Source of the DNA: Myxococcota bacterium
Lineage (GTDB): Bacteria; Myxococcota; XYA12-FULL-58-9; JALHOP01
NCBI GenBank assembly: GCA_041288095.1
Contig: JBGGMJ010000148.1
Location: 1-34,520 of the forward strand
Direction of reading: 5' to 3'
DNA length: 34,520 nucleotides
In this document: in pieces, positions 794 to 29,071 of the stretch
Layout: the number at the start of each line of letters is the position of its first letter
How positions within the stretch are numbered: position 1 is the stretch's first letter
Translations under genes and position numbers: made by a program
The notes under the pieces: generated by a model
Seen by the model: only the letters and a program-made list of their open reading frames with translations
Databases searched by the model: none
What the model was told of the DNA's origin: nothing

Positions 794-801
794 GCCGATA
801 A
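794..801 (+). promoter_or_regulatory. sigma28-like -10 box GCCGATAA
   Basis: Exact match to the FliA -10 consensus, 22 nt before ATG 824. No clear -35 box. Confidence 0.55.
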
Positions 802-823
802 CTGGGCCCCGGAGAGATCTATC

Positions 824-1810
824 ATGGCTGGAATCCAAGCACTTCGCGAGGTTGATGGTCGAGGAACGGCAATCGAGAGCGTCGACGCTCCGTTCGTGAC
901 CCCTAGCGCGCCCGCGGTCCCAACCGACGGCATCGATATGCAAGGGCGTGGGCGCCTGCTCCCCGTTGGTGAAGGCCTGTCCGAGGTGCACGTGACCGGC
1001 GCTTTGCTCGCGCAGGCAGCCGTGGGTCCGAATGTCGACAGCATGCGCAACGTGCTCCGGCGATATCGGGCCATGGTCGCCGCCCTCGGCGACGGCACTC
1101 CGTCCGCGTTGATGGCCGCCTCGTGGAACGACCGTGACCGGGCCGTAGCCGCGTACGGTGAATACCTCGCGGGCCAACGTGTCGGCGTTCCCCAGGCCGC
1201 GCTGCTCACCGCGACGGGCGTCGAGCGCAACGTGGATATCGGTACGGCGCTGGCCGCCTACCGATCATTTGTCCGCTACGACAGAGTATCACCCAATGCC
1301 GCGGCCATGCTCGCCATCGCGCAGGTACGCACCGGCACGGATATCGATGCCGTCTACCGCCGCTACAGCCGATTCCTCGATAGCGGACGCTCGCAAACCG
1401 CCGCCGCCGCGCTCGCGGCCGCCGAGATCGAGAGCGGCGACTTGGACAGCTTCAATGGACTTTCTCAGCGTTTACGTAGCTCCGGCTTCCAAGCCGATGA
1501 CGACGCCATCATCGCATCCGCGATGCTGCGTCACGGCCGGTCCAATACGGTGGTCGCCTCGCTGCACAACACCCACTTCAAGGACCGTGGCGTTCCACCG
1601 TCGGTACGCGCGTCGTTGGTTGCCGCGGGTGTCGCCAGTGATCGCTCGAGCAGTCAAATGTTCGCCGCCTACGACTGGTTTCACAGGAACGGCGAGGTCC
1701 CAGAGGCGCACGCGGTCATGTTGGCTGCGAGCTGGGCGATGCCGGCGGGCGACGGCGCGGGCGTGATGACCACCATCGCGCTCCGCAATAGCGATATGCG
1801 GGACGACTAA
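824..1810 (+). CDS. Hypothetical alpha-helical repeat protein (about 7 repeats of 33-35 aa)
   Basis: GGAGAG RBS; fills the gap between the SET gene and allA; recurring 'AAY..F...(G)....AA.LA.A' unit. Confidence 0.75.
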   Translation: MAGIQALREVDGRGTAIESVDAPFVTPSAPAVPTDGIDMQGRGRLLPVGEGLSEVHVTGALLAQAAVGPNVDSMRNVLRRYRAMVAALGDGTPSALMAASWNDRDRAVAAYGEYLAGQRVGVPQAALLTATGVERNVDIGTALAAYRSFVRYDRVSPNAAAMLAIAQVRTGTDIDAVYRRYSRFLDSGRSQTAAAALAAAEIESGDLDSFNGLSQRLRSSGFQADDDAIIASAMLRHGRSNTVVASLHNTHFKDRGVPPSVRASLVAAGVASDRSSSQMFAAYDWFHRNGEVPEAHAVMLAASWAMPAGDGAGVMTTIALRNSDMRDD

Positions 1811-1816
1811 GGCACG

Positions 1817-2323
1817 TCAGCGAGCGCGGATCTTCGCCACCGAGGCCGCGGAGATCGACCGCGCGTTAATGGTCTGCTCGTCGCAGTTGTTGCCGGCACC
1901 GCCCCGATCGACGACGAGGAAGTCGCTCGTCACGTCGAGCGCCAACAGCGGGTGGTGCCAGACCCCCTTGGCGTAGTTCACGCCTTGCCGGGCGCGGGCG
2001 AGAAACGCGCGGACGCGACCAGGGTCGAGCTCGCCGGCCGGCGCCACGACCACGAGATACTCGCGCTCCGAGAGCGGTACGAAGGCTTGGCTGCCGAGCG
2101 GATGGCGCTCGAGCATGGTGATGGCGATGGGGAAGGGTCTCGCCTGGCCACGAAAGACGTTGATGAGGGTGCGGCCGTCGCCGACATCGACGCGCGCGAG
2201 GTCATGGTAACGCTCGCAGGTGCCGCCGTTGATCGGGTAATGGTGCGCGCCGTCGAGCTCGATGACGTCCCCGAACTCCGCGAAAGCGGAGCGCGTGAGC
2301 GGCTCGACGAGCAGCTCGCTCAC
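1817..2323 (-). CDS. allA: Ureidoglycolate lyase
   Basis: [57 protein letters not shown]. Overlaps the alc stop by 4 nt. Confidence 0.95.
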
Positions 2324-3315
2324 GCCAGCTTCCCGAAGAGTCGCAGGCGGCTCACGCCTCCATCCGGGATGATGTTGAAGCGAACGTGGGTGATGGGCCC
2401 GTGCTTCTCGATCTCCGTGGAGAAGTAGAGCTGCTTGTCCGCGGCGAGCTTCTGCTCTGGGAGGAGGACCGGCCAGAACATGCTCTGAGTGATGATCGAC
2501 TGATCGGTGCCGCTCGTGATGTTGGCGGCCTGGATGCTACAGCGGTCGGGGAAGTTGCCCTTGTAAAAGGCGGTGTCGACCTCGATCTTCTCGACCGTGC
2601 CGGCGTGCCCCAACGCGAGGACAGACCAGTCGTTGCCGGGCTCGCGACGCCGCCGCGTTTCCCAGCCATCGCCCATGTTGATGCCGCGGCCGGGGAGCAG
2701 GAGCTGCTCGGGCATGTTGTAGTGCGCGTCGTTCCAGCCGACCGCGCGGCCGCCGTTCTCGAGCGCGACGAGATCGTACACCGCGCTCTTGTCGTTCTTC
2801 GACCAGTCCTTGTGCACGTCTCCGTAGACGCGCAGACGGGCAACACCTCCGTCGGGGAAGATGTTGAGGCGCACGTGCGTCCACACTCCGCTATTGTCGA
2901 CAGCGGCGTAGTTGTGTGACGTGCCTTTCAAGGGGATGGCCGGCAGCACCTCGGTCCACACCGTATTGGCGTCGGGTGCGCCCGAGACGTTCGCCGCCTC
3001 GAGCGACGCCGCCGGCGGATAGTTACCCGTGAAGTGGCTGGTGTCGACGTCGACGCCGCGGATGCGTCCGGCGACACCGAGCTTGACCACGCACCAGTCG
3101 TGGCCGGCGACGCGCTTGCGGCGCGACTCCCAACCGTCCATCCACTTGCCGTTGTCGTCGTATTTGCCCGGGATGAACACGGCCGGCTCGTTCTGGAGCA
3201 TGCGGTTCATCTCGGCGAAGAAATCGTCGGAGCAGGCTACGGCTTTGGCGCCGAGACGCGCCTGCGCCAAGTTCGTGTAGCGGGTGAAGCTGGGCAGCGT
3301 CGGATCTGGTTGCAT
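2320..3315 (-). CDS. alc: Allantoicase
   Basis: Two allantoicase repeats: [64 protein letters not shown]. Confidence 0.97.
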
Positions 3316-3327
3316 TGGGGGTCCTGG

Positions 3328-3846: not shown

Positions 3847-3850
3847 CCCG

Positions 3851-3885
3851 TCTTCTATGACAAACAGATAACCCCCGACGCAAAT
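3851..3885 (-). promoter_or_regulatory. Purine-operon upstream element, copy 1 (ATTTGCGT-N11-TGTTTG-N2-ATAGAAGA)
   Basis: Same anchors and spacing as 5259-5293; ends 4 nt before the uraD ATG. Confidence 0.7.
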
Positions 3886-3916
3886 GGCGGGTACTTCCAG
3901 GACCGACGAGGGACCC

Positions 3917-4360
3917 ATGGACATCCAAGGAAAGCCGATACTTCCACCCGCCACCGCTAATTCGGTGAACACCGACCCGGCGGTGGATAAAGCCGCCGAA
4001 GCTGCTCCGCCACCTGCTCCTGACCAGTTCAAGCCACCGAACAACGAGGCGCCGCCTCCCGCTCCCCCGCCACCCCCCGCCGGGCTGCCTGTCGCCGGAC
4101 CTAACGTCGAGCCCAATGTCCTCGAGGACGGCCGGCGCATCTTGCGCGAGGCGATCGAAGACGACGACACCGACGACCTCGCGCGATTCTTGCGCGAGCT
4201 GCGCAACAACAACTCACCGACCGTCGTGCGCGGCGTCGCGATCATGCTGTTTCAAGAAGCCGGCCAGCAGCACGACAAGGGCGGCATGAGCACCGAGCTC
4301 TTTCTGAAGATCAAGGAGCTCATCGACACGACGCTTCGGGGCGTGCCGCCAACCATTTAA
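3917..4360 (+). CDS. Hypothetical protein with Pro-rich N-terminus and small helical C-domain, antisense within the purine operon
   Basis: GAGGGA RBS before ATG 3917 (alternative GTG 3965 lies downstream of GCCGATAC 3934-3941). Its stop overlaps the puuE stop (TTAA). Confidence 0.7.
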   Translation: MDIQGKPILPPATANSVNTDPAVDKAAEAAPPPAPDQFKPPNNEAPPPAPPPPPAGLPVAGPNVEPNVLEDGRRILREAIEDDDTDDLARFLRELRNNNSPTVVRGVAIMLFQEAGQQHDKGGMSTELFLKIKELIDTTLRGVPPTI

Positions 4361-5660: not shown

Positions 5661-6929
5661 ATGGGTGCCTACCTCCTCGACTGGGCAGCGATGCTCACCC
5701 GCTGGCTGCACTTCATCGCCGGCGTGGCCTGGATCGGCGCCTCCTTCTACTTCATCTGGCTCGACAACAGCTTGAAGGCACCGACCGATCCCGACCTGCA
5801 GAAGAAGGGCGTGTCGGGTGAGCTCTGGGCCGTCCACGGTGGCGGCTTCTACAATCCGCAAAAGTACATGGTGGCGCCGGCGACGCTGCCGGCCGACCTG
5901 CACTGGTTCAAGTGGGAGGCCTACACCACGTGGATCAGCGGCTTCCTGCTGCTCACCTGGGTCTACTACTTCAACGCCAGCGCTTACCTCGTCGATCAGA
6001 ATGTGCTCGCCATGTCGCCCGGCACCGCTATCGGCATCTCACTGGGCGTGCTGGCCTTCGGCTGGGTCATCTACGACGTCATGTGCCGCGTGTTCGGTAA
6101 AGCGGACAAGGCGCTCGCCATTTTCGGCTTCGTCCTGCTCATCGTCGCGGCGTGGGGGCTAGCGAAAGTCTTCAACGCGCGCGCCGCCTATCTGCACGTC
6201 GGCGCGATGATCGGCACCATGATGGCGGCGAACGTCCTCATGGTGATCATCCCCGGCCAGCGCCGCGTGGTCGAAGCCATGAAGCGCGGCGAGAAGCCCA
6301 ATCCCGAGGACGGCCGCCGCGCCAAGCAGCGCTCGGTGCACAACAACTACCTGACGCTACCGGTGCTCTTCATCATGGTGAGCAACCACTTCCCCATGAC
6401 CTACCAGCACCCGCGCGCCTGGTTGGTGCTCGCGGTCATCATGGTGGCGGCGGTGATGATCCGGCACTTCTTCAATCTGCGGCACAAGGGCAAGGTGGTC
6501 ATCGCGCTGCCGCTCACCGCCGCGGGGTTGTTCCTCGCGCTCATCATCGCCATGGCTCCGAGTCAGGACGCCGAAGCGGACGTGGGTCCGCCGCCGACCC
6601 TCGAAGAGGTGCACTCGGTGATTGGCCTGCGTTGCGCGCGTTGCCACGCCAAGAAGCCGAGCTTCCCCGGACTCCTCGTTGCTCCTCAAGGTCTCATCTT
6701 CGAGGACGCCGCCGTCATCGAGGCAAACCACGAGCGCATCTACAAGCAGGTGGTCGAGACCGAGGCGATGCCCCAGGGCAACATCACCAAGATGACCGAG
6801 GACGAGCGCAACCTCATCGGCCGCTGGTGCCGTTACATGAAGAACCGTAAGCCGGGCGAGGCTGTCCCACCGCCGCCGACGGATGCGCCGCCCGCTCCGG
6901 GAGAACAGCCCCAGCCAGCGGGCGACTAG
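5661..6929 (+). CDS. puuD: Membrane urate hydroxylase PuuD with C-terminal cytochrome c
   Basis: RWLH.IAG.AWIGASFYF, WAVHGGGFY, LHWFKWEAY.TW.SG, RSVHNNYLTLPVLFIMVSNH, heme motif CARCH, MPQGN.T.MT..ER. Confidence 0.95.
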   Translation: MGAYLLDWAAMLTRWLHFIAGVAWIGASFYFIWLDNSLKAPTDPDLQKKGVSGELWAVHGGGFYNPQKYMVAPATLPADLHWFKWEAYTTWISGFLLLTWVYYFNASAYLVDQNVLAMSPGTAIGISLGVLAFGWVIYDVMCRVFGKADKALAIFGFVLLIVAAWGLAKVFNARAAYLHVGAMIGTMMAANVLMVIIPGQRRVVEAMKRGEKPNPEDGRRAKQRSVHNNYLTLPVLFIMVSNHFPMTYQHPRAWLVLAVIMVAAVMIRHFFNLRHKGKVVIALPLTAAGLFLALIIAMAPSQDAEADVGPPPTLEEVHSVIGLRCARCHAKKPSFPGLLVAPQGLIFEDAAVIEANHERIYKQVVETEAMPQGNITKMTEDERNLIGRWCRYMKNRKPGEAVPPPPTDAPPAPGEQPQPAGD

Positions 6930-7528
6930 CGCAACGAGACGCCGCCGCCGCCGGGCTTCAGGCCGTCGCCACGGAGCGGCGCTTGCGGGGCGATGCCGCG
7001 GGCGGCCTCGCGACCTGGCTCCTCGCCAGTCACGTCGGTGGCACGGAGGCTCGCGGGGGGCGTGAAAGTCACCCAGCGCGGCATCTGGCTCGTGAGGTTG
7101 GCCGCTGCCTCGCCGGGTTGCATCGGACGGCTGCCCGAGTCGAAGACGCGACCGTTCTGATTCTCCACCAAGTACGCATGCTCCGAGCGCAGCAGCTCAC
7201 CTTGCGGTGAGACGATGTGGCGCCAGATGTCGACGTAGTAGCGCCCGTCGTCGCGGAGCTGCCAATCTTCGGCGATGATCTGAGTGTTGCCGCCGTGGAA
7301 CTGGCCGGCGGTATCGACGAAGCCGAACTGTCCGGCGAAGTAACGCTGATGGGTGCCGTCACGTGACCCCTCGGTCTGCTCGATCCCCTTGTAGGTTCCG
7401 AACTGGCCGTAGTCGGCCAAGGTGCCGTGGCTTGCGATGTTGGCGAGCGCGGTTTCCCAGCCGGCCGGCGCGACGGCCGGAGCTTCGTTGCGGGGCAGGG
7501 GGCTCACTGCGGAAATGGGGCTGGCCAT
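6926..7528 (-). CDS. Hypothetical protein with beta-rich core
   Basis: AAGGAG RBS; Ala/Pro/Ser N-terminus; stop overlaps the puuD stop (CTAG). Confidence 0.75.
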   Translation of the reverse strand: MASPISAVSPLPRNEAPAVAPAGWETALANIASHGTLADYGQFGTYKGIEQTEGSRDGTHQRYFAGQFGFVDTAGQFHGGNTQIIAEDWQLRDDGRYYVDIWRHIVSPQGELLRSEHAYLVENQNGRVFDSGSRPMQPGEAAANLTSQMPRWVTFTPPASLRATDVTGEEPGREAARGIAPQAPLRGDGLKPGGGGVSLR

Positions 7529-7553: not shown

Positions 7554-7581
7554 TTATCGACCGCTGCTCCCCAAAGGTTGC
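7554..7581 (-). promoter_or_regulatory. sigma28-like promoter GCAAC-N15-GTCGATAA
   Basis: Both boxes present, 25 nt upstream of ATG 7528. Confidence 0.7.
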
Positions 7582-7589: not shown

Positions 7590-8900
7590 CTAGCCGCCTA
7601 TGTCACGTAGCAGCCGTACTTCCGCCGCCGCGAGGTCCTTGGCGACGCGCTTGCCGAGCTGGGCACGCTCGCGCGCCGTGAGGAAGGCCCCGTCGACCGA
7701 ATTCTGGATGAGCTGCTCGACATCGCCGAGCGTCAGCTGGTCGAAGATGGTGAGCAGGCGCTCGAACTCCTTGCTCAGGGTGATGCCGGAGATCGCCGGG
7801 TTGTCGGTGCAGAGCGCGACCAGCACGCCAAGCTGCAGCAAAGCGTAGATGGGATGATCGCCGAAGCTGGCGATGGCGCCGACTTGTGCGTTCGCGGTCG
7901 GACAGCATTCGAGGACCGTTCGCAGCTTGCGCGTCAGTGCGACGACCTCGGGATCCTCGAGGATGCGCGACGCGTGGCCGACGCGTGGGACCTTCAGGTC
8001 GACGATAGCGGACTTGATGCTCTCCGGGCCCGCGGACTCGCCGGCGTGGCAGGTCGCGGAAAGCGCGTCGAGTCGTGCTCCCTCGAAGGCCTCGGCGTAA
8101 GGGCCAGGTGGAAACTGCACCTCGCTGGCACTCGCGAGGTCGATGGCGACGACGCCGAAGTCTTTGTACTTCGCGGCGAGCTTGGCGACGATCGCGCCTT
8201 GGTCCACTCCGTGTTGGCGGGCGATGATGATGATGAGCCGGGCCGTGGTCTTCGTCTTGTCGACACCCTTGCGTACGCCGGCGCAGACCGCCTTGACGAT
8301 GTCTTCCATGTCGAGGCCATGAGCCGCCGCCATGAACTGAGGCGCGAAACGGATCTCGACGTGGGCGAGCTTGTCCTTCGCCGCGTCTTCGACGGTCGAG
8401 GCCGCCAACTCCTCGATGACCTTCGGGTTCTTGAGGACCCGGCCGATGACGTCGAACTTGCTGAGGTAGACGGGCAAGGTGGGGCGGTCGGCCGTCGTGA
8501 TCTGGACGTGCGGCCGGAGACCCTCGAGGTCGTTCGCCGGCAACATGATGCCGAGCTCTTTGGCGACCGAGAGCAGCCGCTCCAGCGGAATCGAGCCGTT
8601 CAGGTGGCGGTGCAGATCGATCTTCGGCATGCGCTCGGTGAACGCGCGTAGCGCTTCCGGCGGCAGCTGCGAGAGCGGGGTGAGGCGCAGCTCGGCAATG
8701 CCGCGGTCGACCGCATCCATGACGGCCTTGCCCTGAGAGCCCATGAGCTTCGCGCGCGCGGTGTCGACCTTCTCGGAAAGCCAAGGTTTTCCGCGGTTCT
8801 GCGCGACCCCGACCTTCTCGGCGCGAGGCTTGGCGCTATCGGCTACGGCCTGCCGACCGGGAGCGACAGAACTCTCCCTTATCGTCACTCGCGATGTCAC
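7590..8900 (-). CDS. add: Adenosine deaminase family protein with about 85-aa N-terminal extension
   Basis: MPKIDLHRHLNGS, EIRFAP, CHAGE, RVGHA, LECCPTAN, CTDNP (metal ligands and catalytic Glu present). Confidence 0.9.
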   Translation of the reverse strand: MTSRVTIRESSVAPGRQAVADSAKPRAEKVGVAQNRGKPWLSEKVDTARAKLMGSQGKAVMDAVDRGIAELRLTPLSQLPPEALRAFTERMPKIDLHRHLNGSIPLERLLSVAKELGIMLPANDLEGLRPHVQITTADRPTLPVYLSKFDVIGRVLKNPKVIEELAASTVEDAAKDKLAHVEIRFAPQFMAAAHGLDMEDIVKAVCAGVRKGVDKTKTTARLIIIIARQHGVDQGAIVAKLAAKYKDFGVVAIDLASASEVQFPPGPYAEAFEGARLDALSATCHAGESAGPESIKSAIVDLKVPRVGHASRILEDPEVVALTRKLRTVLECCPTANAQVGAIASFGDHPIYALLQLGVLVALCTDNPAISGITLSKEFERLLTIFDQLTLGDVEQLIQNSVDGAFLTARERAQLGKRVAKDLAAAEVRLLRDIGG

Positions 8901-8907: not shown

Positions 8908-8934
8908 GTATCGGCACGTGACTCGCCGCGTTGC
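8908..8934 (-). promoter_or_regulatory. sigma28-like promoter GCAAC-N14-GCCGATAC
   Basis: Ends 7 nt before the GTG start at 8900. Confidence 0.7.
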
Positions 8935-14138: not shown

Positions 14139-14146
14139 GTATCGGC
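14139..14146 (-). promoter_or_regulatory. sigma28-like -10 box GCCGATAC
   Basis: 11 nt before ATG 14127; -35 box poor. Confidence 0.55.
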
Positions 14147-14217: not shown

Positions 14218-15063
14218 TTATCCGCGCGGTACGTAGCGATACAGGCCGACACCCGGCTCGACTTTGGCGTCGCTCCACTTGGTGTCGACGAACACGTTCA
14301 TGGCCTCGGGATAGCCGGCCGCGAGCGCCATGACGTTGGCTGGCTCGTTGTCGAGCGTGCCCACCACCGGGCCGAGCTTGTCGATCTGGGGCTTCACGTC
14401 GCGCTTGAAGTCGGCGTCGCCATACTTCGACCCATCGGGGTGCTTCGCGAAGGGCTTGAGGAAGAGGAAGTAGCGCTTGTCATCCGGCGTGAAGCCGTCG
14501 CGCTCGAGCGCCGTCAGCGTACCGGCGCCTTGGTCGGCGACGACCCGCCCGGTAAGGAAAACGACCCGTGCGCCGGCGTCCGCGAGCTTGCGCGTCAGAT
14601 CGGCGACCTCCGCGATGACCGGGTCGATGGCGGTGTGCGGATTGTCGAGGAAGGTCTTCAAGAAGAACGGCAGCAGCACCTTCATGACCTCGGCGGTCTC
14701 TTCGGCACTGACGCCGGCGGCGCGCACCGTGTCCGCGGCCGAGTAACGCACGTGCTCCAGCCGAACCTCGGCGAGGGCGGCCTTCACCTTCGGGAAGGCA
14801 TCGGCGTCCTTGGTCGCCGCCCATTCGCGCAGCACCGCCACCATGCGTGGGTCGTTGTCGTAGAGCGTGTAGTCCAGGTCGAAGATGACGACGGGCTGCT
14901 TGCCATTGCGGACATGGTCGCGGACCGTGGCGAGGAGCTTGGCGCCGACCTCGGCGCTCGACAGCGGCACGAAGCGCGTCGCCGCGATCCAGGCGGCGCC
15001 CCCCACGGGTTCCCGCGAGGGCGGCGTCGGAGGCGCGGCGGTGTTGGCCGCCACTGGGGCCAT
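14218..15063 (-). CDS. HAD-superfamily (acid phosphatase-like) hydrolase
   Basis: Motif I VIFDLDYT, motif II FLTGR, motif III DFK, motif IV LDNEPAN. Start ATG 15063 or GTG 15054. Confidence 0.85.
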   Translation of the reverse strand: MAPVAANTAAPPTPPSREPVGGAAWIAATRFVPLSSAEVGAKLLATVRDHVRNGKQPVVIFDLDYTLYDNDPRMVAVLREWAATKDADAFPKVKAALAEVRLEHVRYSAADTVRAAGVSAEETAEVMKVLLPFFLKTFLDNPHTAIDPVIAEVADLTRKLADAGARVVFLTGRVVADQGAGTLTALERDGFTPDDKRYFLFLKPFAKHPDGSKYGDADFKRDVKPQIDKLGPVVGTLDNEPANVMALAAGYPEAMNVFVDTKWSDAKVEPGVGLYRYVPRG

Positions 15064-15064
15064 G

Positions 15065-15092
15065 CTATCGCGGACAGGCTGCTCGGGCGTGC
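15065..15092 (-). promoter_or_regulatory. sigma28-like promoter variant GCACG-N15-CGCGATAG
   Basis: Spacing matches the other sites; 10 nt before in-frame GTG 15054. Confidence 0.45.
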
Positions 15093-15211
15093 TCTGATAG
15101 ACCCGGGTCGTGCGCGGCAGCGGCCGGCGCGTAGCGAAGCGGGCGTAGCAAGGCGTCGTGTTGCGTGGGTTTGCTCTTGGGGTCTTATGGGTCCGCATGC
15201 GCACGAGCCTC

Positions 15212-16513
15212 CTAGCCGCCAAAGGCGACGTTGCAGCCAACGATGACTTTCTGGGCCCAGACGGTGTAGTCGCCGCGCGCCGAGGGCAGCGCGAATCCCG
15301 AAAGCGTGTCGGCGCGGGGATTGAAGATCGATGACTCGACGTGGACCGGGATACCGAGCACGGCACCGTAGGTAGCTTCGAGCGTGATGCTCTCGGTCAG
15401 CGGGATGCGCGCGCCGAGGTTGAGCTCCATGAGCGTGAAATCGATGTTCAAGGGACTCACGGCCTCGCGTGGGGTGTTGCGCGGCGTGACGTCGAAGCGT
15501 GAAGCTAGCTCCAGGCCCGAGTCGAGCTTGTAGCTGCCCCGCAGGCCGACCGTGTACTCGTTGCGCGACTCACGTACGGAGACCTGGTCGCCACGAAGCA
15601 GGGCGCTGTCGGAGGTGACGACACGGCCGAGGATGAGGCGCTGCCGGCTCTTCCCCTGCATCTGTGCGAGGAGCGCGAAGGTCATGCGGCCAGTGGTCAG
15701 CTCCGCTTCAGCGTTCAGCGCCCACGGAATGGGATAGGTCAGCCGAAAATCGGCGGTTGGATTCGCGATCTGCACCGGCACCGCGTCGGCGAGAGAGGGC
15801 GGCGCGGTGAGCGCGAGGCGGCCACCGAGTCGCGGCGTTTGCGGCAAGAAGCCGCTCAACGCGATGGCGAAGTTGTCCGCCGGTTTGGCGTAGACGCTCG
15901 CGAGCACCAGGGTCGACCATCCATGGAGGTCGAGCTCGAGGCTGCCTTCGAGCTCGGGATCCTCGAACGGGAAGAGCTGCGCGCCGGAGGGCAAGGCGCG
16001 ATTGGCATAGGCACCGAAGTCGTAGGATGCCTGCTGGTCGAGCGACACGAACATCGGCCCGCCACCGATAGCGACCGCGACGCGCGGGCTCACCGTCCAG
16101 ATCGCGCCCAGCGGCGCCGCGTAGGCGAACGCCGTGCTGTCGGTGACGTGGTAGCGTGTCGGACCGTCAGTCCGCCATCGCGTACCAGCGGTCGTGGGGC
16201 TGAAGACGCCCGCGAAAACGCGCAGCTCCGGCCACGGCGTGCTCGCCACCGCGGTCAATGCTCCTACGGGCGAGATGATGCCGAAGGTCTCGCGCGGGTA
16301 GAGTGGCTCGGTGCTCGCGTCCTCGGGCTCGCGCTGGTAGCCGACGTGGATGTAGCTGGCGCGCGCCTCGATGTAGACGGCGTGCGGCGCTTTCGACATG
16401 CCGAGGACCGCGGGGCCCCAGTAGACCGTCGAGCCGTTCGCCTGGGTCGGACCCGCGAAGACCCCACCGGCGGGAGATGCGACGAGGAGCGCCGCCAGTG
16501 CCGTGACTAGCAC
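15212..16513 (-). CDS. OmpP1/FadL/TodX-family outer-membrane beta-barrel
   Basis: Signal peptide, hatch-like STVYWGPA.L, W..DGPTRY, alternating beta-strands, C-terminal strand VIVGCNVAF. GTG start overlaps the upstream stop by 7 nt. Confidence 0.8.
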   Translation of the reverse strand: MLVTALAALLVASPAGGVFAGPTQANGSTVYWGPAVLGMSKAPHAVYIEARASYIHVGYQREPEDASTEPLYPRETFGIISPVGALTAVASTPWPELRVFAGVFSPTTAGTRWRTDGPTRYHVTDSTAFAYAAPLGAIWTVSPRVAVAIGGGPMFVSLDQQASYDFGAYANRALPSGAQLFPFEDPELEGSLELDLHGWSTLVLASVYAKPADNFAIALSGFLPQTPRLGGRLALTAPPSLADAVPVQIANPTADFRLTYPIPWALNAEAELTTGRMTFALLAQMQGKSRQRLILGRVVTSDSALLRGDQVSVRESRNEYTVGLRGSYKLDSGLELASRFDVTPRNTPREAVSPLNIDFTLMELNLGARIPLTESITLEATYGAVLGIPVHVESSIFNPRADTLSGFALPSARGDYTVWAQKVIVGCNVAFGG

Positions 16514-18618
16514 GTCGGCCTTTTGCGCTTACGGAGCAGCATGCCCGCGATGGCGAGCATCGCGAACAATGAAGCTTCTCCCGCGGCGGCGCAGCCCATG
16601 CCAGGGTCGTCGACGACTGCATAGCTTTGCGTGAAGGTCGCGACATTACCGGCTTGATCGGTGGCGGTGAGCCGCACGCGGACCGTCGAGAGGTCAGGCA
16701 GGCCATCGAGCTTCAAGACGTCGGTCGACTTGAGCCGGCCGCTCGCGAGCTGGTGGTCATCCTTGGCGCGGCGGCCAACTGCTTCGACGACATAGTCGAT
16801 GGTGATGTCCTCCGGCTTGCTCATGTTGTCGTCGGCGTCGATGCGCAGCGGTGTGCCGCCCGCGGGGATGATGCCGCGCGGGCCGTCGCGCACGACGACG
16901 ACCGGTGGGGTCGTGTCGATATCGAGAGTGATGACCTCGGGTGACGCGTCGATGTTGCCGGAGAGGTCTTGCGCGTAGATTTTCACCTCGTGCCGGCCGC
17001 CGGTGAGTCCGCTCAAGCTGATGCTGTTGCCGACATGCACGTCCGTTTGCGCAACCCCGTCGATGTCGATGAGATGATGGATGAAGCCTGCTGGTGTCTT
17101 GTCGTCGTCGGAGTCGGCGGTGAGCTCGACCTCGGCACCGCAGGGGCAATGCGGCTCTTCGGCGAGCGCGGTGCGCGGCGGGCTACCGTCAGGACCGGCG
17201 CTGAAGAGCGAGAACGAGGCGACGATCCCGGCCGCGCTCGTGCGGACCTCGTCGATGGCTATCGCGAGTGGCGTCGAGGTGAAGACGTTCGCGGTGACCG
17301 GGACCTCACGCAGCGAGCTCAAGAAGCGCGGCATGATCGCGGCTTCCACGAACCCCGCCATGGTCGACCGCGAGAGATTGAGATCGGCACGGCCGATCTG
17401 GACGGAGAGCGCGTCCATTCCCAGGCTCTTCGGCGCGACCACGATGCGCCGTTTGCTATCGCGCACGGCTACGTCCGCGCCAACGAACACGCCGGTGTCG
17501 AACGTCGCCGAGTACTGCTCGTTCGACGGCATGCGGATCGCGACCTCGCCGTGCAAGTCCTCGACCTGCAGGGCCACGCCCCCGCCGTCGTCCCCGGTGA
17601 CGAAGCGCGGCGGGTGCTTGGCGACCACGAGAGCGTCGATGCGCGAGCCAGGGAGCGTGCCGTCGAGGATGTCGCCGATGCCGACGTCGGTGGTGCGCGT
17701 ATCGAAGCACAGCCAGCCGGCCTCCCATGCCGAGTCCATGACGCGCTGGACGAAATGATCGCTGACCCCGATTGCGGTCTGGCCTTGGGGCAGAGCGATT
17801 GGGGCTCCGGTCGGTCTCGGCCGCGGCTCGAGGGTGCTCGCATCCACGCAGGTGCTGCGCGTGGCCGGCTGAACGTCGAGGTCGAAGTCGAGGAGCAAGG
17901 CGTCCTCGGCGACGGTGATGAGGCGGGGCTGTGCCTTGAATTGCAGGCGCGCCGCGGACACCTCGCGGTCGACGAGGCCGGTGGTGGCGTCGGCGATGCG
18001 CTTGTTGAGGAGCTCCGGCAGTCCCGCCACGAGATCGGTGCGGACATAGTCGACGAGCGCATCGCGAACCGAGTCGTGCACCGCCGAGAGGATGGAGCCG
18101 TACAGCCCGCACGTCGCGAGATCGAGCGTGACGGCTTGGTTCTCCATCGAGAGCACGACCGAGTCGACGACGATCTCCGGCACGCAATCGTCGACGCCGA
18201 TCGACGCGCGGGCGCTCACCTCGAAATGGTCGATGTCGAGCGCGACGTTGCAAGCGGTGTTGGGGAGAGCGCAGACGGTGAGCTCGAGGAACGCGGAGAC
18301 GTTCACCGAGCCGGCGACGCGCAGGGCGATGGCACCCGCCTGCAGATCGACTTCGACCTGGTCGAGCGAGGCGCGTACCTCGGCGCCGCTCGCGTGGATC
18401 GCCACGTCGTCGAACCAACCGCCGCACTCGAACACGGTGCGATCGATCTCGGGCAGGGCGACAGTGTCGGGGAGGATGGTGTCCGCCGCGCGCAAGGCGG
18501 TGTCGATGGATTCCTGGGTGATCTGGGCCCGGACCGCCGACGGAGCATAGCTCGCCTCACAGGTGGCGAGCGCCAACCGTGGAAGCAGAATGACCAAGCT
18601 CAAGACCAACGGACGCAT
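16507..18618 (-). CDS. Secreted surface protein: putative BPI/LBP/CETP-like region, Ig-like beta domains and MYXO-CTERM-like tail
   Basis: Signal peptide. AQITQESID…LPEID and AIGVSDHFVQ…AWEAGWL resemble BPI N- and C-lobe starts. DLSGN/DTTPP/DQAGN are Ig-like motifs. Tail GCAAAG-hydrophobic-RKRKR. Confidence 0.7.
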   Translation of the reverse strand: MRPLVLSLVILLPRLALATCEASYAPSAVRAQITQESIDTALRAADTILPDTVALPEIDRTVFECGGWFDDVAIHASGAEVRASLDQVEVDLQAGAIALRVAGSVNVSAFLELTVCALPNTACNVALDIDHFEVSARASIGVDDCVPEIVVDSVVLSMENQAVTLDLATCGLYGSILSAVHDSVRDALVDYVRTDLVAGLPELLNKRIADATTGLVDREVSAARLQFKAQPRLITVAEDALLLDFDLDVQPATRSTCVDASTLEPRPRPTGAPIALPQGQTAIGVSDHFVQRVMDSAWEAGWLCFDTRTTDVGIGDILDGTLPGSRIDALVVAKHPPRFVTGDDGGGVALQVEDLHGEVAIRMPSNEQYSATFDTGVFVGADVAVRDSKRRIVVAPKSLGMDALSVQIGRADLNLSRSTMAGFVEAAIMPRFLSSLREVPVTANVFTSTPLAIAIDEVRTSAAGIVASFSLFSAGPDGSPPRTALAEEPHCPCGAEVELTADSDDDKTPAGFIHHLIDIDGVAQTDVHVGNSISLSGLTGGRHEVKIYAQDLSGNIDASPEVITLDIDTTPPVVVVRDGPRGIIPAGGTPLRIDADDNMSKPEDITIDYVVEAVGRRAKDDHQLASGRLKSTDVLKLDGLPDLSTVRVRLTATDQAGNVATFTQSYAVVDDPGMGCAAAGEASLFAMLAIAGMLLRKRKRPTC

Positions 18619-18642: not shown

Positions 18643-18670
18643 TTATCGACCGTTCGGACCCATTTGATGT
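18643..18670 (-). promoter_or_regulatory. sigma28-like promoter ACATC-N15-GTCGATAA
   Basis: 24 nt upstream of ATG 18618. Confidence 0.55.
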
Positions 18671-20513: not shown

Positions 20514-22049
20514 CTAGCCGACACGCGCCTCGACGCGTTGCGCGTGCTCGACCGTCGTGCCTCCCACGAGCACGTGCGTGACCTTGCCGGCGGCATCGCG
20601 CAGGAAGAAGAACTCCTCGTCGTTGTCGCCGCTACGCGTGTCGCCGATGCCGACAAAGGTGTCCTTCTTGTCGGGGACCGGCGTGAGCGTTGCGCCCGGT
20701 TGGAAGACCAGGTCGCCGCTCGCGTTGGTGGTGAGGGTGCGCTTGGCGCCGCCGCCGCGTTGGTAGAGCCCCATCAGCTCGGCCCAAGCCGGGTCGCGCG
20801 GTTCCGCGCCCTTGGGTGGCGCCGAGCGGGCAACGTCGACGAGCTCGGCAAGGATGATATCGACAGCGCGGTTCTGTTGCAGGCTCCAGTCGTTGGTCAG
20901 CGCCACGACGCCGAAGGAGCCGTCGGTGGTCATGCGCATGACGCTCGCGAAGCCGAGACCGCTGCCGGTGTGACCGAAGGCACGGGTGCCGAACTTGAGC
21001 GCCAGCGTCAGCAGCCCGTAGCCGAACTGCGAGTCCTGGGTCTCGTCGATCGCCGCGGTCTTGCGCATGGTGGCGACGCTCGCGGGCGACAGCACACCGG
21101 GCGTGCTCGCGGGATCACGGAGGAAGCCGATCCAACGCGCCACGTCGAGGGCCGTGGACTTGCAACCCGATGCCGCGCCCATGGCGCCGGGTGTCCGCAA
21201 TAGCGGCACGGCGGCGCGCTCGACCTTGTCGCCGTTGGTGAAGGGCGGCTCGTAACCCATGGCGCAGCGCTTGAGCTTGGCGTCGTCGAGCGTGAAGCCC
21301 GTGTCGTGCATGCCGAGCGGCTTCAAGATGTGGTTTGCGACGTAGCTCTCGTAAGGCTCGCCCGAAACGCGGCTGACGATCTCGCCGAGGAGCATGAAGC
21401 TCAGATTCGAGTACTTCACGCCCTTGTCCGGGTTCGGCAGCACCCGCGCTTTCGGTAGCTGCTCGGCGACTTCGGCCCATGTCGGCCACGAGCCGCGCTC
21501 CCAGAACTGGCCCGGTTGCCAATAGGCGAGCGCCGCGTCACGGCTGAGCCGGCCGGTGTGCGACAGGAGCTGGTGCACGGTGATGCTGGCGACCAAGTCC
21601 TTGCGGCCGCCAACGCGCGCGAACTCCGGCACGAGGTCTACCACCTTCGCGTCGAGCGACAGCTTACCGCGCTCGACGAGCTGCATGATGGCGGCAGCGG
21701 TGAGCGACTTGCTCATGGAGTTGATGCTGTAGAGCGTGTCGTTCGAGGTGGACTCGCCGGTCTCGAGGTTCTTGAAGCCGAGGGCGCCGTTGTGAACGAG
21801 ACGGCCTTCGAAGAGCACCGCGTACTGGACGCTGGGCGGCGCCGCCGACTTTCCGAGCCACGCCTCGAGCTTGGCTTCGGCGTTGCGCATGGCGTCGCGC
21901 ACGGTAGGGCGCACGAGCGCCGGACGCGGGTCCTTGATGCGGCGGATTTCCCCCGGCGCGCTCGGCACGTCTTGGTTGCGCGCGGTGGGAACGGCGGCCG
22001 GCTGAAGCCGCGGTGCGGCCGAAGCGGAGAGATTGCCTAGGATGTTCAT
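20514..22049 (-). CDS. Serine hydrolase, beta-lactamase/AmpC-like family, with extra C-terminal domain
   Basis: SxxK (SMSK), LLSHT, YSN, LKPLGM.DT, GHTG. No signal peptide; start ATG 22049 (MNILGNLS…). Confidence 0.9.
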   Translation of the reverse strand: MNILGNLSASAAPRLQPAAVPTARNQDVPSAPGEIRRIKDPRPALVRPTVRDAMRNAEAKLEAWLGKSAAPPSVQYAVLFEGRLVHNGALGFKNLETGESTSNDTLYSINSMSKSLTAAAIMQLVERGKLSLDAKVVDLVPEFARVGGRKDLVASITVHQLLSHTGRLSRDAALAYWQPGQFWERGSWPTWAEVAEQLPKARVLPNPDKGVKYSNLSFMLLGEIVSRVSGEPYESYVANHILKPLGMHDTGFTLDDAKLKRCAMGYEPPFTNGDKVERAAVPLLRTPGAMGAASGCKSTALDVARWIGFLRDPASTPGVLSPASVATMRKTAAIDETQDSQFGYGLLTLALKFGTRAFGHTGSGLGFASVMRMTTDGSFGVVALTNDWSLQQNRAVDIILAELVDVARSAPPKGAEPRDPAWAELMGLYQRGGGAKRTLTTNASGDLVFQPGATLTPVPDKKDTFVGIGDTRSGDNDEEFFFLRDAAGKVTHVLVGGTTVEHAQRVEARVG

Positions 22050-22059: not shown

Positions 22060-22086
22060 TTATCGGCGTTGGCCGGCGAACGGTGT
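22060..22086 (-). promoter_or_regulatory. sigma28-like promoter ACACC-N14-GCCGATAA
   Basis: Perfect -10 box, 10 nt before ATG 22049. Confidence 0.65.
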
Positions 22087-23436: not shown

Positions 23437-23464
23437 GCAACGACGCGTTGGCCAACCGCGATAA
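23437..23464 (+). promoter_or_regulatory. sigma28-like promoter GCAAC-N15-CGCGATAA
   Basis: 10 nt before ATG 23475. Confidence 0.65.
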
Positions 23465-23474: not shown

Positions 23475-24137
23475 ATGGCCCAGCTCGACTTCTGCAGGTC
23501 CGCGGCAATTGCCCACGTGCACCAACGCATTGAGGCCGGTGTCATCCCTGCCGGCGAAATCGTCGCGGTTGGAGATGTCTCGGTTACCGGCCGCGTCCCG
23601 GAAGCCGTCGCGACCGCCGAAGCCTTGATCGCGGACTTCAAGCGCGAGCACGCAGGCACGGAGGCGTCGTCCCCCACGCAGCCAGTCGCGGCCCAAGAAG
23701 GTTCCTGGTCGCATCGCTTCGGTCGCTTTGCCCAAGCGGTCGACCGCTACTTGCCCGACACCGAAGTGAAGGAACGCATCGTCGTCCGCGTGCGGCACGC
23801 CACGGGCGAAGCGACCTATCCCGTCGACGTCACTGATCCCTTCGCGACCAGCGCCGCACGGCAGGCGGCGCAGACGACCCTGTTCGCCGGCGCGGCTCCC
23901 TTCGTCGGCCCAGGGGTCATCTTCGCCGGCGCCGCCATGTGCTGGAAGCGCTCACGCGAGGACGCCGACGCGAACACACGGATCGCCATGAAGCGCACCG
24001 CGACCAAGCTGGGCGCGCTCAGCGTGTTGCGCATGCTGCCGGTGACCGAGCCGATGTGCTTGATCCTCGGCGGCACCGAGCTCGCGGCGAAGCGCGCCTT
24101 GCAGCAGCGCGCGAGCTACACGAGCGACGGCGCCTAA
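23475..24137 (+). CDS. Hypothetical protein with C-terminal hydrophobic segments
   Basis: Fills the gap between the MFS and lipoprotein genes; motif-associated ATG. Confidence 0.65.
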   Translation: MAQLDFCRSAAIAHVHQRIEAGVIPAGEIVAVGDVSVTGRVPEAVATAEALIADFKREHAGTEASSPTQPVAAQEGSWSHRFGRFAQAVDRYLPDTEVKERIVVRVRHATGEATYPVDVTDPFATSAARQAAQTTLFAGAAPFVGPGVIFAGAAMCWKRSREDADANTRIAMKRTATKLGALSVLRMLPVTEPMCLILGGTELAAKRALQQRASYTSDGA

Positions 24138-26230: not shown

Positions 26231-26259
26231 TTATCGCCCAACCCGACGTTTCGACCTGC
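26231..26259 (-). promoter_or_regulatory. sigma28-like promoter variant GCAGG-N16-GGCGATAA
   Basis: 7 nt before ATG 26223. Confidence 0.5.
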
Positions 26260-26301
26260 CCGCCCGCCCTGGTGCCTTGGCGTCAGGGGGCGAGACTGAG
26301 G

Positions 26302-26431: not shown

Positions 26432-26458
26432 GCAACTTCTGCCGCACCATGTCGAAAA
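26432..26458 (+). promoter_or_regulatory. sigma28-like promoter GCAAC-N14-GTCGAAAA
   Basis: 33 nt before ATG 26492. Confidence 0.6.
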
Positions 26459-26491: not shown

Positions 26492-27691
26492 ATGGGAGGC
26501 GTGGTGGACGGCATTCAACGTATGATCACCGCGAACCGTGACCTCGGGGCGCGCATCACCGAGGCGCGCGGCTGGCGCGGAGAGCTGGCGGCGATCCACG
26601 GAGACAGCCGGCACCCGTCTGGGTTCAGCAAACACTTCGTCGATTGGTGTGTGCAGTCCGGTTTAGCGGACGCTGATTTCTTGAAGGCCGGGCGCGCCGG
26701 CTTCGGTGGCTTTACCGAGTATCGGGGCTATAGCCCGCGACCCGCCATCGTGCTCGTCCACGGCAACGGCTGTGACGCGACGGTCATGGCGCCGACCATC
26801 ACCGAGCTGATGCGGCAGGGCTTCGGCCCCCAGGACATCTACGTCGTCAGCTACGGCAAAGGGGATCCCGAGCAGGCGGCGAACGAGACCCACGCGCCCG
26901 CTTACGCGCGCAATCTCCGAACCTTCCTCGATGCGGTCGCCGGTTACACCGGTAGACAGTTGGTCGTCGTCGGCCACTCCAAAGGGGTGACCGACGTCCA
27001 GCTCGCGATCCATGGCGTCAGCATCGACGAGGGCGGCGATGTCGTGCGTTTCGCCAACAAGCTGCCCGTACGCACCTTCATCGGCGCCGCCGGGGCCAAC
27101 CAAGGCTTGAGCGAGTGCCGCACGCTGCCGTTTCTGCCGGTGTCGAACCGCTATAACGGATTTCATCCGGAAGCGAAGCTCTATCAAGTGCTGCCCAAGC
27201 TCGGTAAGGCCGCCGATAGGGTCTTCAGCATGGTGGCGCGCGACGACGAGCTCGAGGACGACGAGCTCAAGACCGCGCAGGTACCGTTCCAGGACGGTCA
27301 GGTGGTCCTCGGGAGCGGCGGCCACATGGCGCCGATCTGGGAGCCTGATGCGCTGGCCTCGCTCATCGCCGACCGGCGTTACGATCTCATCGCCCGCGAC
27401 GCCTACGAATCGATCCGCCCGGGTCTGAAGTACGCCAACCCCTTGTCTCCGTTCGCTCTAGCGGACGCGATGCTCGTTGCCGGGGAGCACTTCCTCGGTG
27501 CTGGTTTCGAAGCCGCTCGCCTCCGCGATCCAGCCATGCGCGCCGGGTGTGGGATTGCGACGCTCTTCGAAGCCGCGCGCGCCGCTTTCCTGCAGATGCC
27601 TCAGGTACCCATGGCGCTGCTCGCGTCCGCCGGCGTGCGCACGCCTGAAGCGGCGGCCATCGCTGGTGAGATCAGCAGGCGGGCTCGTTAG
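26492..27691 (+). CDS. Alpha/beta-hydrolase, class 2 lipase-like
   Basis: IVLVHGNG, FLDAV.GYTG, nucleophile elbow VGHSKG, GAAGANQGL, DDE, GH. No signal peptide. Confidence 0.85.
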   Translation: MGGVVDGIQRMITANRDLGARITEARGWRGELAAIHGDSRHPSGFSKHFVDWCVQSGLADADFLKAGRAGFGGFTEYRGYSPRPAIVLVHGNGCDATVMAPTITELMRQGFGPQDIYVVSYGKGDPEQAANETHAPAYARNLRTFLDAVAGYTGRQLVVVGHSKGVTDVQLAIHGVSIDEGGDVVRFANKLPVRTFIGAAGANQGLSECRTLPFLPVSNRYNGFHPEAKLYQVLPKLGKAADRVFSMVARDDELEDDELKTAQVPFQDGQVVLGSGGHMAPIWEPDALASLIADRRYDLIARDAYESIRPGLKYANPLSPFALADAMLVAGEHFLGAGFEAARLRDPAMRAGCGIATLFEAARAAFLQMPQVPMALLASAGVRTPEAAAIAGEISRRAR

Positions 27692-27717
27692 CGTCGCGGT
27701 GACTCCGGCTCGCGCTC

Positions 27718-28998
27718 TCAGGCCGCCAGCAGCGACGGACGATCCCACTTCGTTTGGAAGGCAGCGATTCGCGGCGCGATGTTCGCGCGCCAGAGCTTGC
27801 CGTTGAAGACGCCGTAGTGGCCGGCTTCGGGCTCGACGTAGTAAGCGCGCTTGGCGGCGGGGATGCCCGTGCAGAGCTCGTGAGCCGCGGAGGTCTGTCC
27901 GACGCCGCAGATGTCGTCTTTACCGCCTTCGATGACGAGCAGCGGGACGTCGATCTTCGAGAGGTCGACGCGGCGGCCGTCGAGGACGAGCTCACCCTTC
28001 GGCAGCAAATGCCGCTGGAAGATCACATCGATCGTCTCGGTGTAGAACTTGCCTTGCAGGTCGAGCAGCGCGTTGTACTCGTCGTAGAACTCGCGGTGCT
28101 TGCGGATGGCCTCCTGCGCCCCGGTGACGAGGGCCCAGAAGTAGTCGATGTGCGCGTTGGCGTGCTTTGCCAGGTTCTGGCCGACGAAGCCTGCCTGTTG
28201 CAGCAGACCGGGCATGACCATGCGGCTGAAGCCGTCATGGCCGAACGGCACCATGTGCAACATGTTGGTCTTGAAGAGCGCCAGTGAGGTCTTGGTCGCG
28301 AAGGCGTTGCACTCTTGCGGGTTGACGCGCGTGTCGACGGGGCCGGCCATGAGCGTCAGTGAACGTGGTTTGCAGTCGTCGGCGTCCTCGCTCATGAAGG
28401 CGACAGCCGCGAGCGCGGCGGGCGAGGGCTGGCAGACGGCGGTGAGATGGCAGCCGGGGCCGGCGACTTTGAGGGCGCGCCGGATATGCGCGACGTTGTC
28501 GGCGAGGCCGAACTCGCCGGCGGCGGCGGGCACCGTGGAGGCGCACTTCCACTCGGTGACGTAGACGTCGCCGCTCTTGAGCATCTCCTGAGCCGTGGCG
28601 CGCAGGAGCGTCGAATGGTGTCCGGACATCGGCGTGACCAGTACGCCGCGCGGTTGACCCGCGAGGCGTTGCTTCAAGGCCGCCGCGGCGGACGGGGCGA
28701 GAGCGGAGGTATCGCGGGTGAACCGCACGAGACGGTAAAACGGGGTCTCGTCGGCGATCTCCTCGCGGATCGGCACCGTGTGGCCGTCGATCTGGACCTC
28801 GCGAATGTTCCACTCGGGCTTCGGATAGACGCGCGTGAGTCGATCGAAAAGGTCAGCCCCCGCGACCAACATCCGGGCTCCGGGTGTCTGCGATAGCGGA
28901 TTTGCCTCGTTGCCCCAGACCGCGGCGGTCATGGCTGCCGCGGCGCGCGCTGGCATGAGTGCAGCTTGACTCGCGTCGTGCCAGAACTTCAGCAGCAT
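27718..28998 (-). CDS. phaZ: Polyhydroxyalkanoate depolymerase, intracellular (Cys-nucleophile) type
   Basis: PMSGHHSTLLR, AVCQP, MAGPVDTRVNP, FYDEY.A..DL...FY.ET, EG.KDDI.G.GQT, GHYGVFNG. Confidence 0.94.
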   Translation of the reverse strand: MLLKFWHDASQAALMPARAAAAMTAAVWGNEANPLSQTPGARMLVAGADLFDRLTRVYPKPEWNIREVQIDGHTVPIREEIADETPFYRLVRFTRDTSALAPSAAAALKQRLAGQPRGVLVTPMSGHHSTLLRATAQEMLKSGDVYVTEWKCASTVPAAAGEFGLADNVAHIRRALKVAGPGCHLTAVCQPSPAALAAVAFMSEDADDCKPRSLTLMAGPVDTRVNPQECNAFATKTSLALFKTNMLHMVPFGHDGFSRMVMPGLLQQAGFVGQNLAKHANAHIDYFWALVTGAQEAIRKHREFYDEYNALLDLQGKFYTETIDVIFQRHLLPKGELVLDGRRVDLSKIDVPLLVIEGGKDDICGVGQTSAAHELCTGIPAAKRAYYVEPEAGHYGVFNGKLWRANIAPRIAAFQTKWDRPSLLAA

Positions 28999-29044
28999 GG
29001 ACCATCCGAATGAACCGCCCGCATGATCACGGGTCTGTTGAGTC

Positions 29045-29071
29045 GTATCGGTCGGCTCGAGCGAGAGTTGC
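29045..29071 (-). promoter_or_regulatory. sigma28-like promoter GCAAC-N14-ACCGATAC
   Basis: 46 nt upstream of the phaZ ATG. Confidence 0.65.

Follow-up and report, generated by a model that had tools for sequence, protein, structure and literature searches.

The window analysed here, 34,520 nucleotides (nt) long, is contig C148 of an uncultured myxobacterial genome (G000), and the element in question is a two-box signal that recurs upstream of its genes. The signal is almost certainly a real promoter motif. To judge from its sequence and distribution, it is a dispersed, genome-wide promoter of the sigma-28 type with an altered CAAC -35 box, neither canonical for sigma-28 nor flagellar, and it is predicted to mark about 360–400 genes of G000. 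It is probably read by a paralog of the sigma factor FliA encoded in the locus of a secretion system of type III (T3SS), of the kind called T3SS* in Myxococcus xanthus. Our estimate is only a little better than even for the wider proposal, that through this promoter the paralog switches on late parts of T3SS* together with dispersed exported cargo. A scattered sigma-28-like promoter with a CAAC -35 box had been proposed from the window alone (the original prediction) and is borne out genome-wide as GCAAC-N16/17-CGATA; added here are a likely sigma factor (the paralog of the T3SS* locus, not a flagellar or FlgM-paired one) and a likely export route.

G000 comprises 5.85 Mb at 66% GC, is 90% complete and belongs to the same phylum as the Myxococcaceae. 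Its 5057 genes were called with our own hexamer model, and their starts are for that reason approximate. Among hexamers in 3031 upstream regions, CGATAA has the strongest strand bias (225 sense versus 98 antisense). Anchoring on CGATA, with no assumption about a -35 box, recovers GCAAC 16–17 nt ahead of it: 133 copies stand at N16 and 60 at N17 (193 together), against 1–15 at every other spacing in the range 8–29. The canonical -35 boxes TAAA, TCAAG and CAAG were rejected, none being in excess ahead of CGATA; TAAA occurs there in 1 and 6 copies at N16 and N17. The matrix consensus from these regions is RC(G/A)CAAC, a 14–15 nt spacer and GCCGATA(A/C). Its -10 box agrees with that of FliA/WhiG promoters (GCCGATAA), and so does the fixed spacer of about 15 nt (14–15 nt to the 8-nt box, N16/17 to CGATA), whereas GCAAC takes the place of the -35 box TAAA or TAAAG.

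At a threshold of at least 11 bits the matrix finds sites in 404 of the 3031 regions, against 34–48 in five wrong-spacer controls, and about 360 sites are therefore taken to be real; the regions scanned are those on which the matrix was trained, and it served for the controls as well. Sites of at least 14 bits number 333 per Mb outside coding interiors but 16 per Mb within them, so that the enrichment over background on which the original prediction depended is seen in spacing and in density alike. Sites are kept in 35 of 38 orthologues of regulon genes in the congener G002, against 4 of 250 other genes (counts covering 800 kb of G002; G001–G003 are the congeners used for orthologue comparison). 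ATG codons cluster 7–11 nt past the box (84 of 471 sites, with 20 at 0–4 nt and 21 at 12–15 nt), and a Shine–Dalgarno sequence precedes 2% of the 101 genes starting 3–14 nt past the box versus 57% of the 239 starting at 15–60 nt. Such a peak of start codons without Shine–Dalgarno sequences would fit leaderless transcripts from a real promoter. Boxes with a -10 element only show a modest excess as a class (30 sense versus 17 antisense in 2595 genes).

All 12 site sequences first proposed for the window were found in place and in sense orientation. Seven of them stand as strong sites and are kept, at 13–22 bits, at 15 of the 15 homologous loci found in G001–G003, two of which hold distant homologues (33–38%) of the gene at 6926–7528. 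Four others are weak or have a -10 box only, and the one at 15065 fails as a promoter site (3.1 bits, with an ATG merely 1 nt past the box). The strong sites are as follows.

7554..7581, minus strand: GCAAC-N17-CGATAA, 17.8 bits, 25 nt ahead of the ATG at 7528; kept at 3/3 homologous loci
8908..8934, minus strand: 20.5 bits, 7 nt ahead of the GTG at 8900; 3/3 loci; mRNA probably leaderless
18643..18670, minus strand: variant -35 box ACATC, 14.1 bits, 24 nt ahead of the ATG at 18618; 2/2 loci
22060..22086, minus strand: -35 box ACACC, 19.2 bits, 10 nt ahead of the ATG at 22049; 2/2 loci; mRNA probably leaderless
23437..23464, plus strand: 16.3 bits, 10 nt ahead of the ATG at 23475; 1/1 locus
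26432..26458, plus strand: -10 box CGAAAA, 19.3 bits, 33 nt ahead of the ATG at 26492; 1/1 locus
29045..29071, minus strand: 19.6 bits, 46 nt ahead of the ATG at 28998; 3/3 loci

The genes said to lack the motif do lack it: no site of at least 11 bits precedes the purine genes, maeA, terC or the MFS, lipoprotein, FHA, DUF3857 and PEGA genes. Among orthologues of 11 site-less window genes in the congeners, 29 of 30 rows score below 8 bits, and the 30th owes its score to slicing at the edge of a locus, an artefact that brought in the site of the deaminase gene. One 15.4-bit match lies antisense within a gene at 25506. With 6 site genes against 2.3 expected, the window ranks second of 106 contigs longer than 20 kb; it is rich in sites without being an island, in keeping with the scatter that had been claimed.

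A sigma-28-family factor, as the original prediction supposed, appears to be encoded in G000. There are two FliA-like genes, on contigs C92 and C127, both slightly under the cut-off of TIGR02479. The C92 sigma (C92:35188-36072; top match TIGR02479 at 163.7 bits, cut-off 189.6) lies in the T3SS* locus. Its region 4.2, singled out for inspection beforehand, is indeed altered, with the recognition helix KSWTSRLH (KSWxSRLH in general form) instead of ESRVCQLH. The C127 sigma keeps the canonical helix, DSRVCQLH, and has a FlgM-like gene next to it. A quick tree of 55 proteins puts the two types in separate clades, and the C92 sigma differs from a flagellar FliA in its helix, in its clade and in having no FlgM beside it. 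The S-R-L end of its helix resembles that of the extracytoplasmic function (ECF) sigma factors that read AAC. All 120 listed homologues of the Myxococcaceae sigma have KSWASRLH.

The motif follows this sigma, seven clear exceptions apart. In 44 related loci, a site of at least 13 bits within 300 nt stands ahead of the SctI-like gene in 26 of 36 cases and ahead of a 185-amino-acid (aa) gene, described below, in 18 of 26, against 2/34, 0/13, 0/24, 0/19 and 1/40 for five neighbouring genes. In a comparison of 300 genomes, in which motif counts were set against a reversed-pattern control (the unpublished G173 is left out of the account, though the computed tallies include it), a motif excess of at least 5 is found in 157 of 183 genomes with the T3SS*-locus sigma and in 27 of 117 without it. 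Within family f17 the median count is 17 against a control of 5 in genomes with the sigma, and 1 against 1 in those without; in family f21 (45 genomes) the sigma is absent and the motif stays at background. Of 21 genomes of the same order, 20 show motif enrichment; in G010, G013 and G015, also enriched, the T3SS*-locus type is the only FliA seen, and each of 12 Myxococcaceae genomes has one FliA-type match.

It is improbable that an ECF or another conserved non-FliA sigma factor reads the motif and that the T3SS*-locus FliA has only been inherited along with it by chance. Several observations do weigh against the T3SS*-locus paralog here: AAC at -35 is also an ECF hallmark, a motif excess of at least 20 persists in 7 of the 117 genomes in which the sigma was not detected, and no FliA-type gene was found in G022, G048 and G062, where the excess is 41–52 against 8–10. 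The sigma factor near the split SctV-like gene of G022, tried as a reader, is an ECF. In addition, the genomes compared are kin and not independent. Against an ECF reader there are the 8-nt -10 box, which is of sigma-28 type, the adjacency of motif and FliA gene in most T3SS* loci, and background motif levels in the f17 and f21 genomes that lack this FliA. None of 38 mapped sigma-domain genes (40 tried) has a site of at least 11 bits within 400 nt upstream, which argues against an autoregulated ECF. In family f10, to which G022, G048 and G062 belong, genomes with motif excess and no detectable FliA carry a divergent, shortened SctU/SctV-like pair (G022:C24, positions 5365-8394 of locus L308).

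Still less probable, to the point of being very remote, is reading by the FlgM-paired FliA of C127, or by a flagellar FliA missing from the 90%-complete assembly, with export by the flagellar route. The FliA–FlgM pair is present in G000; G001–G003 have a third FliA, placed in a flagellar cluster in G001, as it is in the flagellated relative G005; and G005 and G016 are motif-enriched with only these FliA types found. A flagellin was not found in G000, in an assembly that is 90% complete. Yet both FliA types keep the canonical (E/D)SR(V/I)CQ helix, the flagellin and flgM genes of G001 and G005 have TAAAG or TCAAG boxes (read by eye), of a kind unenriched before CGATA in G000, and no more than 6 of 40 relatives have a close homologue of the C127 sigma. 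G005 has a true SctV, and its lack of a T3SS*-locus sigma may therefore be an assembly gap; G023, also with a true SctV, has a divergent member of the T3SS*-locus clade. The FliA–FlgM pair of G000 (C127:21744-22853) lies outside flagellar clusters, with a TCAAG-type box ahead of flgM.

The T3SS* locus of G000 on C92 contains SctI, J, L, N, O and Q and a SycD/CdsG-like tetratricopeptide-repeat (TPR) chaperone; SctR, S and T, also part of the set, are recognised by sequence and order only, and SctU and SctV lie apart, on C41 and C31. T3SS* occurs across the uncultured order to which G000 belongs. The three secretins of G000 are all outside the locus. The locus (C92:6713-35154) is broken by inserts (a potassium-transporter-like gene, RND efflux genes, an HD-domain orphan and leader-bearing orphans) that are absent from closer-packed relatives.

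The 185-aa gene that shares the promoter motif belongs to a trio at C92:36795-38544, with a 111-aa gene on one side and, on the other, a TPR gene of CdsG/SycD-like type (match to CdsG, E 6e-5), an order like that of sctE-sctF-sctG. The Myxococcaceae genomes G029 and G111 have repeated genes for 73–74-aa helical hairpins with weak similarity to needle subunits, and the C-terminal 40 residues of the 185-aa protein and the 73-aa repeats of G029 give weak needle-family matches: E 0.043 to the profile PF09392 for one homologue, E 0.19 to the top structure in the PDB (7y6c_F), and a match to TIGR02105 in 1 of 25 rows. A predicted model of the needle-like gene is a helical hairpin (predicted local distance difference test, pLDDT, 71.5); it had no match in a Foldseek search, for which a helical hairpin is uninformative, and a profile search returned only unannotated family members among the best 120 of 609. 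One study concluded that the Myxo systems have lost SctF (PMC3459982). That the 185-aa and 73-aa genes encode the needle subunit is a lead which we put slightly short of even. Seven further G000 proteins end in a needle-like tail, three of them in clusters with LcrH/SycD-like TPR genes, and might possibly be tip, translocator or filament variants. They lie at the following coordinates.

C10:81060-82268, needle-like-tail protein
C46:1720-2649, needle-like-tail protein
C82:35586-36476, needle-like-tail protein
C181:33054-33959, needle-like-tail protein
C188:8081-8926, needle-like-tail protein
C210:21230-22954, needle-like-tail protein
C210:35166-35663, needle-like-tail protein

The marked genes had been described as orphans and hydrolases, and this description holds. 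Annotation was confined to the 40 densest 20-kb stretches, where it covered 147 of 401 high-confidence targets and, as controls, 75 of 292 operon-first genes. Only 38 of the 147 targets have a Pfam match, leaving 109 orphans, whereas 50 of the 75 controls have one (25 orphans); peptidases make up 14 of the 38 matches and 4 of the 50. Signal-like N-termini, called by a hydropathy rule, are found in 7.6% of 434 targets against 25–30% of about 2500 controls, and three or more transmembrane segments in 0.5% against 5.4%. Regulon members of the S8, S9, M14, M20 and serine hydrolase families lack the signal that their paralogs or homologues have. At residues 2–25 the targets have an excess of S, T, P, Q and A and a shortage of L, F, D, E and K. 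A simple composition classifier trained on G000 (the leader score) separates the targets even among signal-less proteins, with an area under the curve (AUC) of 0.77. Of the held-out proteins with a needle-like tail, 7 of 8 score at least 0.7, against 1 of 17 machinery or chaperone proteins; so do 7 of 10 ‘substrate-like’ proteins, chosen by locus context or by eye. The targets thus resemble T3SS substrates as a population, not gene by gene, in having no Sec signal and an N-terminus rich in S, T and P and poor in L and aromatics, and they are therefore candidate T3SS* cargo. Provided that the T3SS*-locus sigma does read the motif, it is reasonably probable that many, not all, of its targets are T3SS* substrates; taken overall, export of many targets through T3SS* is somewhat favoured.

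The alternative is that the same sigma serves a general lifestyle or growth-phase programme, comparable to the attack phase of Bdellovibrio, with most targets cytoplasmic and only a few T3SS* genes exported, which we consider unlikely. Part of what weighs against export would suit it. The regulon includes housekeeping-type members (Lon, a ClpX-like ATPase, a Crp-type regulator and a DEAD-box helicase paralog), besides phaZ in a genome with phaC, oxidoreductases, a desaturase, a Flp pilin and four Sec-exported BPI/LBP-like paralogs. The classifier still separates targets at residues 50–74 (AUC 0.65); just half of the regulon proteins reach 0.7, SctI scores 0.28, 4 of 8 flagellar substrates reach 0.7, and, the BPI-like gene aside, three of the seven window genes with strong sites have scores of 0.35–0.52. 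Faster N-terminal divergence is not significant (identity 0.70 versus 0.80, controls 0.83 versus 0.87; p 0.24, 38 versus 250 genes), and a signal swap between paralogs is weak (10 versus 3 of 52 pairs). T3SS* has no secretin of its own (PMC10433427), which bears on the passage of cargo across the outer membrane, and the FliA of Bdellovibrio covers 92 of 140 attack-phase promoters (PMC3627812). In two further searches, translocator-like proteins with 1–2 internal transmembrane segments were not enriched (20% versus 18%), and CesT-like chaperones (PF05932) were found neither in G000 nor in 14 control genomes. What speaks against a lifestyle programme is the strong depletion of signal peptides and multi-spanning membrane proteins, the hydrolases missing the signals of their relatives, the leader type held in common with held-out T3SS-associated proteins, and the composition of the regulon in the Myxococcaceae.

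There the regulon is small and consists mostly of T3SS* genes and leader-bearing orphans. G029 has six matrix sites in its T3SS* locus and dispersed sites ahead of orphans with similar leaders. G111, of the genus Myxococcus, has a sigma 98% identical to a protein named Myxococcus and five sites within the T3SS* locus; against a control of 8 it has 19 pattern matches, and 12 of these fall no more than 100 nt from a gene start, three of them in T3SS*. Ten of 13 site-bearing G111 genes reach a leader score of at least 0.7 under the G000-trained classifier, against 21% of 150 background genes. Most of these genes have no Pfam match and one has DUF1521, a domain known from the T3SS-secreted NopE. 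Two DUF1521-like proteins of G000 (C129:56272-57825 and C10:7744-8709) have no promoter site. The sigma gene of G111 lies in a co-directional arrangement with gaps of at most 28 nt.

On the cargo proposal, the T3SS*-locus FliA paralog would transcribe the rod (SctI-like) and needle-like genes plus dispersed cargo and, given the co-directional arrangement in G111, its own gene from one of its promoters. An unstructured N-terminal signal would take cargo out through T3SS*, and this cargo would digest a prey or host cell in contact, much as happens with T3SS* in M. xanthus. In the lineage of G000 the regulon has grown to about one tenth of transcription units, taking in Sec-exported and metabolic genes (BPI-like, Flp pilin, phaZ, Lon). 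Further, and more tentatively than the needle lead, the FliA may have been inherited from the flagellum and retuned to CAAC, its promoter marking a divergent needle-like subunit, the Tad pilin of G000 and the missing effectors. If this last reading is true, T3SS* is not needle-less, and cargo genes number about ten in Myxococcus but several hundred across the uncultured order, which would be among the largest T3SS repertoires described, aimed at microbial prey.

Flagellar class-3 genes (FliA/FlgM) and the hrp box of HrpL are precedents in which a dedicated alternative sigma ties late substrates to the type III machine that exports them, and in such systems dispersed effector genes are recognisable by a promoter box and an S/T/P-rich N-terminus. 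The present case differs from both: HrpL is an ECF, whereas here a group-3 FliA has an ECF-like -35 box; no FlgM lies beside the T3SS*-locus sigma; and the regulon is several times larger. The motif suggests that the earliest-branching non-flagellar T3SS has kept the flagellar logic of sigma-28 and late substrates; it also offers an annotation rule for hundreds of orphan genes in an uncultured order.

Two other FliA-type systems can be compared. The attack-phase FliA of Bdellovibrio bacteriovorus (PMC3627812) shares the CCGATA -10 box and N16 spacer, and its regulon likewise extends, in a lineage related to predators, over many genes that are non-flagellar, encode proteases or are uncharacterised. 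Its -35 box is TTAAG as against RC(G/A)CAAC in G000, it is the flagellar FliA whereas the G000 candidate belongs to a separate T3SS*-locus clade and relatives of G000 have TAAAG at flagellar promoters, and its 92 promoters have mapped starts where about 360–400 are predicted in G000. The sigma-28 of Chlamydia (PMC12282069) is also a FliA-type factor of a non-flagellated bacterium with a T3SS, but it binds only hctB and tsp by chromatin immunoprecipitation sequencing, with no T3SS cargo regulon.

T3SS* of M. xanthus (MXAN_2434-2464) has the same gene set and order (PMC12075869, PMC10433427, PMC12428579, PMC10849154, PMC3459982): SctI, J, L, N, O, Q, R, S, T and chaperones are shared, with no secretin in the locus, and the sigma and motif are present in Myxococcaceae genomes. 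The accessible portions of these same five papers name no regulator, promoter or effector and call needle homologues absent; the present analysis, in contrast, proposes a promoter, cargo candidates and genes with a weak likeness to needle genes. Prey lysis by M. xanthus requires T3SS*, whose effectors are given as unknown or hypothetical (PMC10433427, PMC12075869, PMC12428579, PMC10849154) and whose regulation is likewise given as unknown (PMC10433427, PMC12075869, PMC12428579). With the box in the T3SS* locus and a short orphan list in a Myxococcus genome, the effector question becomes directly testable in a tractable strain. Reviews limit the combination of Kil and T3SS* to the Cystobacterineae, whereas here T3SS* is found across an uncultured order. 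Our search, with subscription papers and supplements outside its scope, found no literature on the promoter or regulon of this sigma.

The genes associated with the strong sites of the window are listed below.

6926..7528, minus strand: 200-aa orphan with an S/P/A-rich leader and no signal peptide; no Pfam or NCBIfam match; leader score 0.83; candidate T3SS* cargo
7590..8900, minus strand: adenosine deaminase with an N-terminal extension of about 90 aa (PF00962 and TIGR01430 from residue 92); leader score 0.91; candidate cargo
14218..15198, minus strand: HAD-family hydrolase
15212..16513, minus strand: 433-aa signal-bearing protein, overlapping the BPI-like gene; no Pfam or NCBIfam match
16507..18618, minus strand: 703-aa Sec-exported BPI/LBP-like protein with a signal-like N-terminus
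20514..22049, minus strand: serine hydrolase of the beta-lactamase family with a hydrophilic leader (PF00144 from residue 68); leader score 0.93; candidate cargo
23475..24137, plus strand: 220-aa orphan; leader score 0.42, intermediate
26492..27691, plus strand: Lipase_2/PhaZ7-like hydrolase (PF01674) without a signal peptide, convergent with phaZ; leader score low, 0.35
27718..28998, minus strand: intracellular-type polyhydroxybutyrate (PHB) depolymerase PhaZ (TIGR01849, above cut-off)

Distant homologues of the serine hydrolase are signal-like in 74 of 110 cases. The BPI/LBP-like protein, whose Atlas structure matches LBP/BPI clusters at TM-scores of 0.66–0.68 (by target), is one of four paralogs that each carry the site, and it is classed as co-regulated yet not T3SS cargo; its C-terminus has a weak MYXO-CTERM-family match. 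The 433-aa gene probably shares its operon, and the HAD gene, which probably starts at 15198, is probably the third gene of this operon from 18670. The G002 orthologue of the HAD gene carries an extra site of 18.9 bits, placed in 36 nt that are missing from G000. The gene at 26492..27691 had been called a lipase; it is a hydrolase, as PF01674 indicates, and appears nearer to PhaZ7-like depolymerases (NF050060, E 3.4e-9, below the cut-off). With phaC present in the genome, PHB made by the cell itself may be what PhaZ acts on, and the view that this enzyme is necessarily prey-directed was rejected. The two PHB-depolymerase-like genes converge at 26492-28998, with a strong site ahead of each.

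The remaining candidate sites of the window are weaker.

794..801, plus strand: -10-only box, 6.4 bits, 22 nt ahead of the 824-1810 orphan (leader score 0.75); kept in 2/2 orthologues; probable weak regulon member
3934..3941, plus strand: -10-only box, 4.7 bits, ahead of a proline-rich open reading frame (ORF) at 3965-4360; doubtful as a site
14139..14146, minus strand: -10-only box below 8 bits, ahead of the 12172-14088 orphan (leader score 0.9); kept in G002 (1/1); probable weak regulon member
26231..26275, minus strand: two overlapping weak candidates (26231, 4.4 bits; 26248-26275, 10.7 bits) ahead of the 25318-26223 orphan (leader score 0.85)

Orthologues of the 25318-26223 orphan and of the proline-rich ORF were not found in the congener stretches compared. 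That ORF interrupts an otherwise ordinary urate/allantoin degradation cluster (1817-6929) comprising ureidoglycolate lyase, allantoicase, OHCU decarboxylase, PuuE, HIUase and urate oxidase. A stand-alone SET-domain protein at 149-766, with no promoter site, is kept in the congeners at 74–87%.

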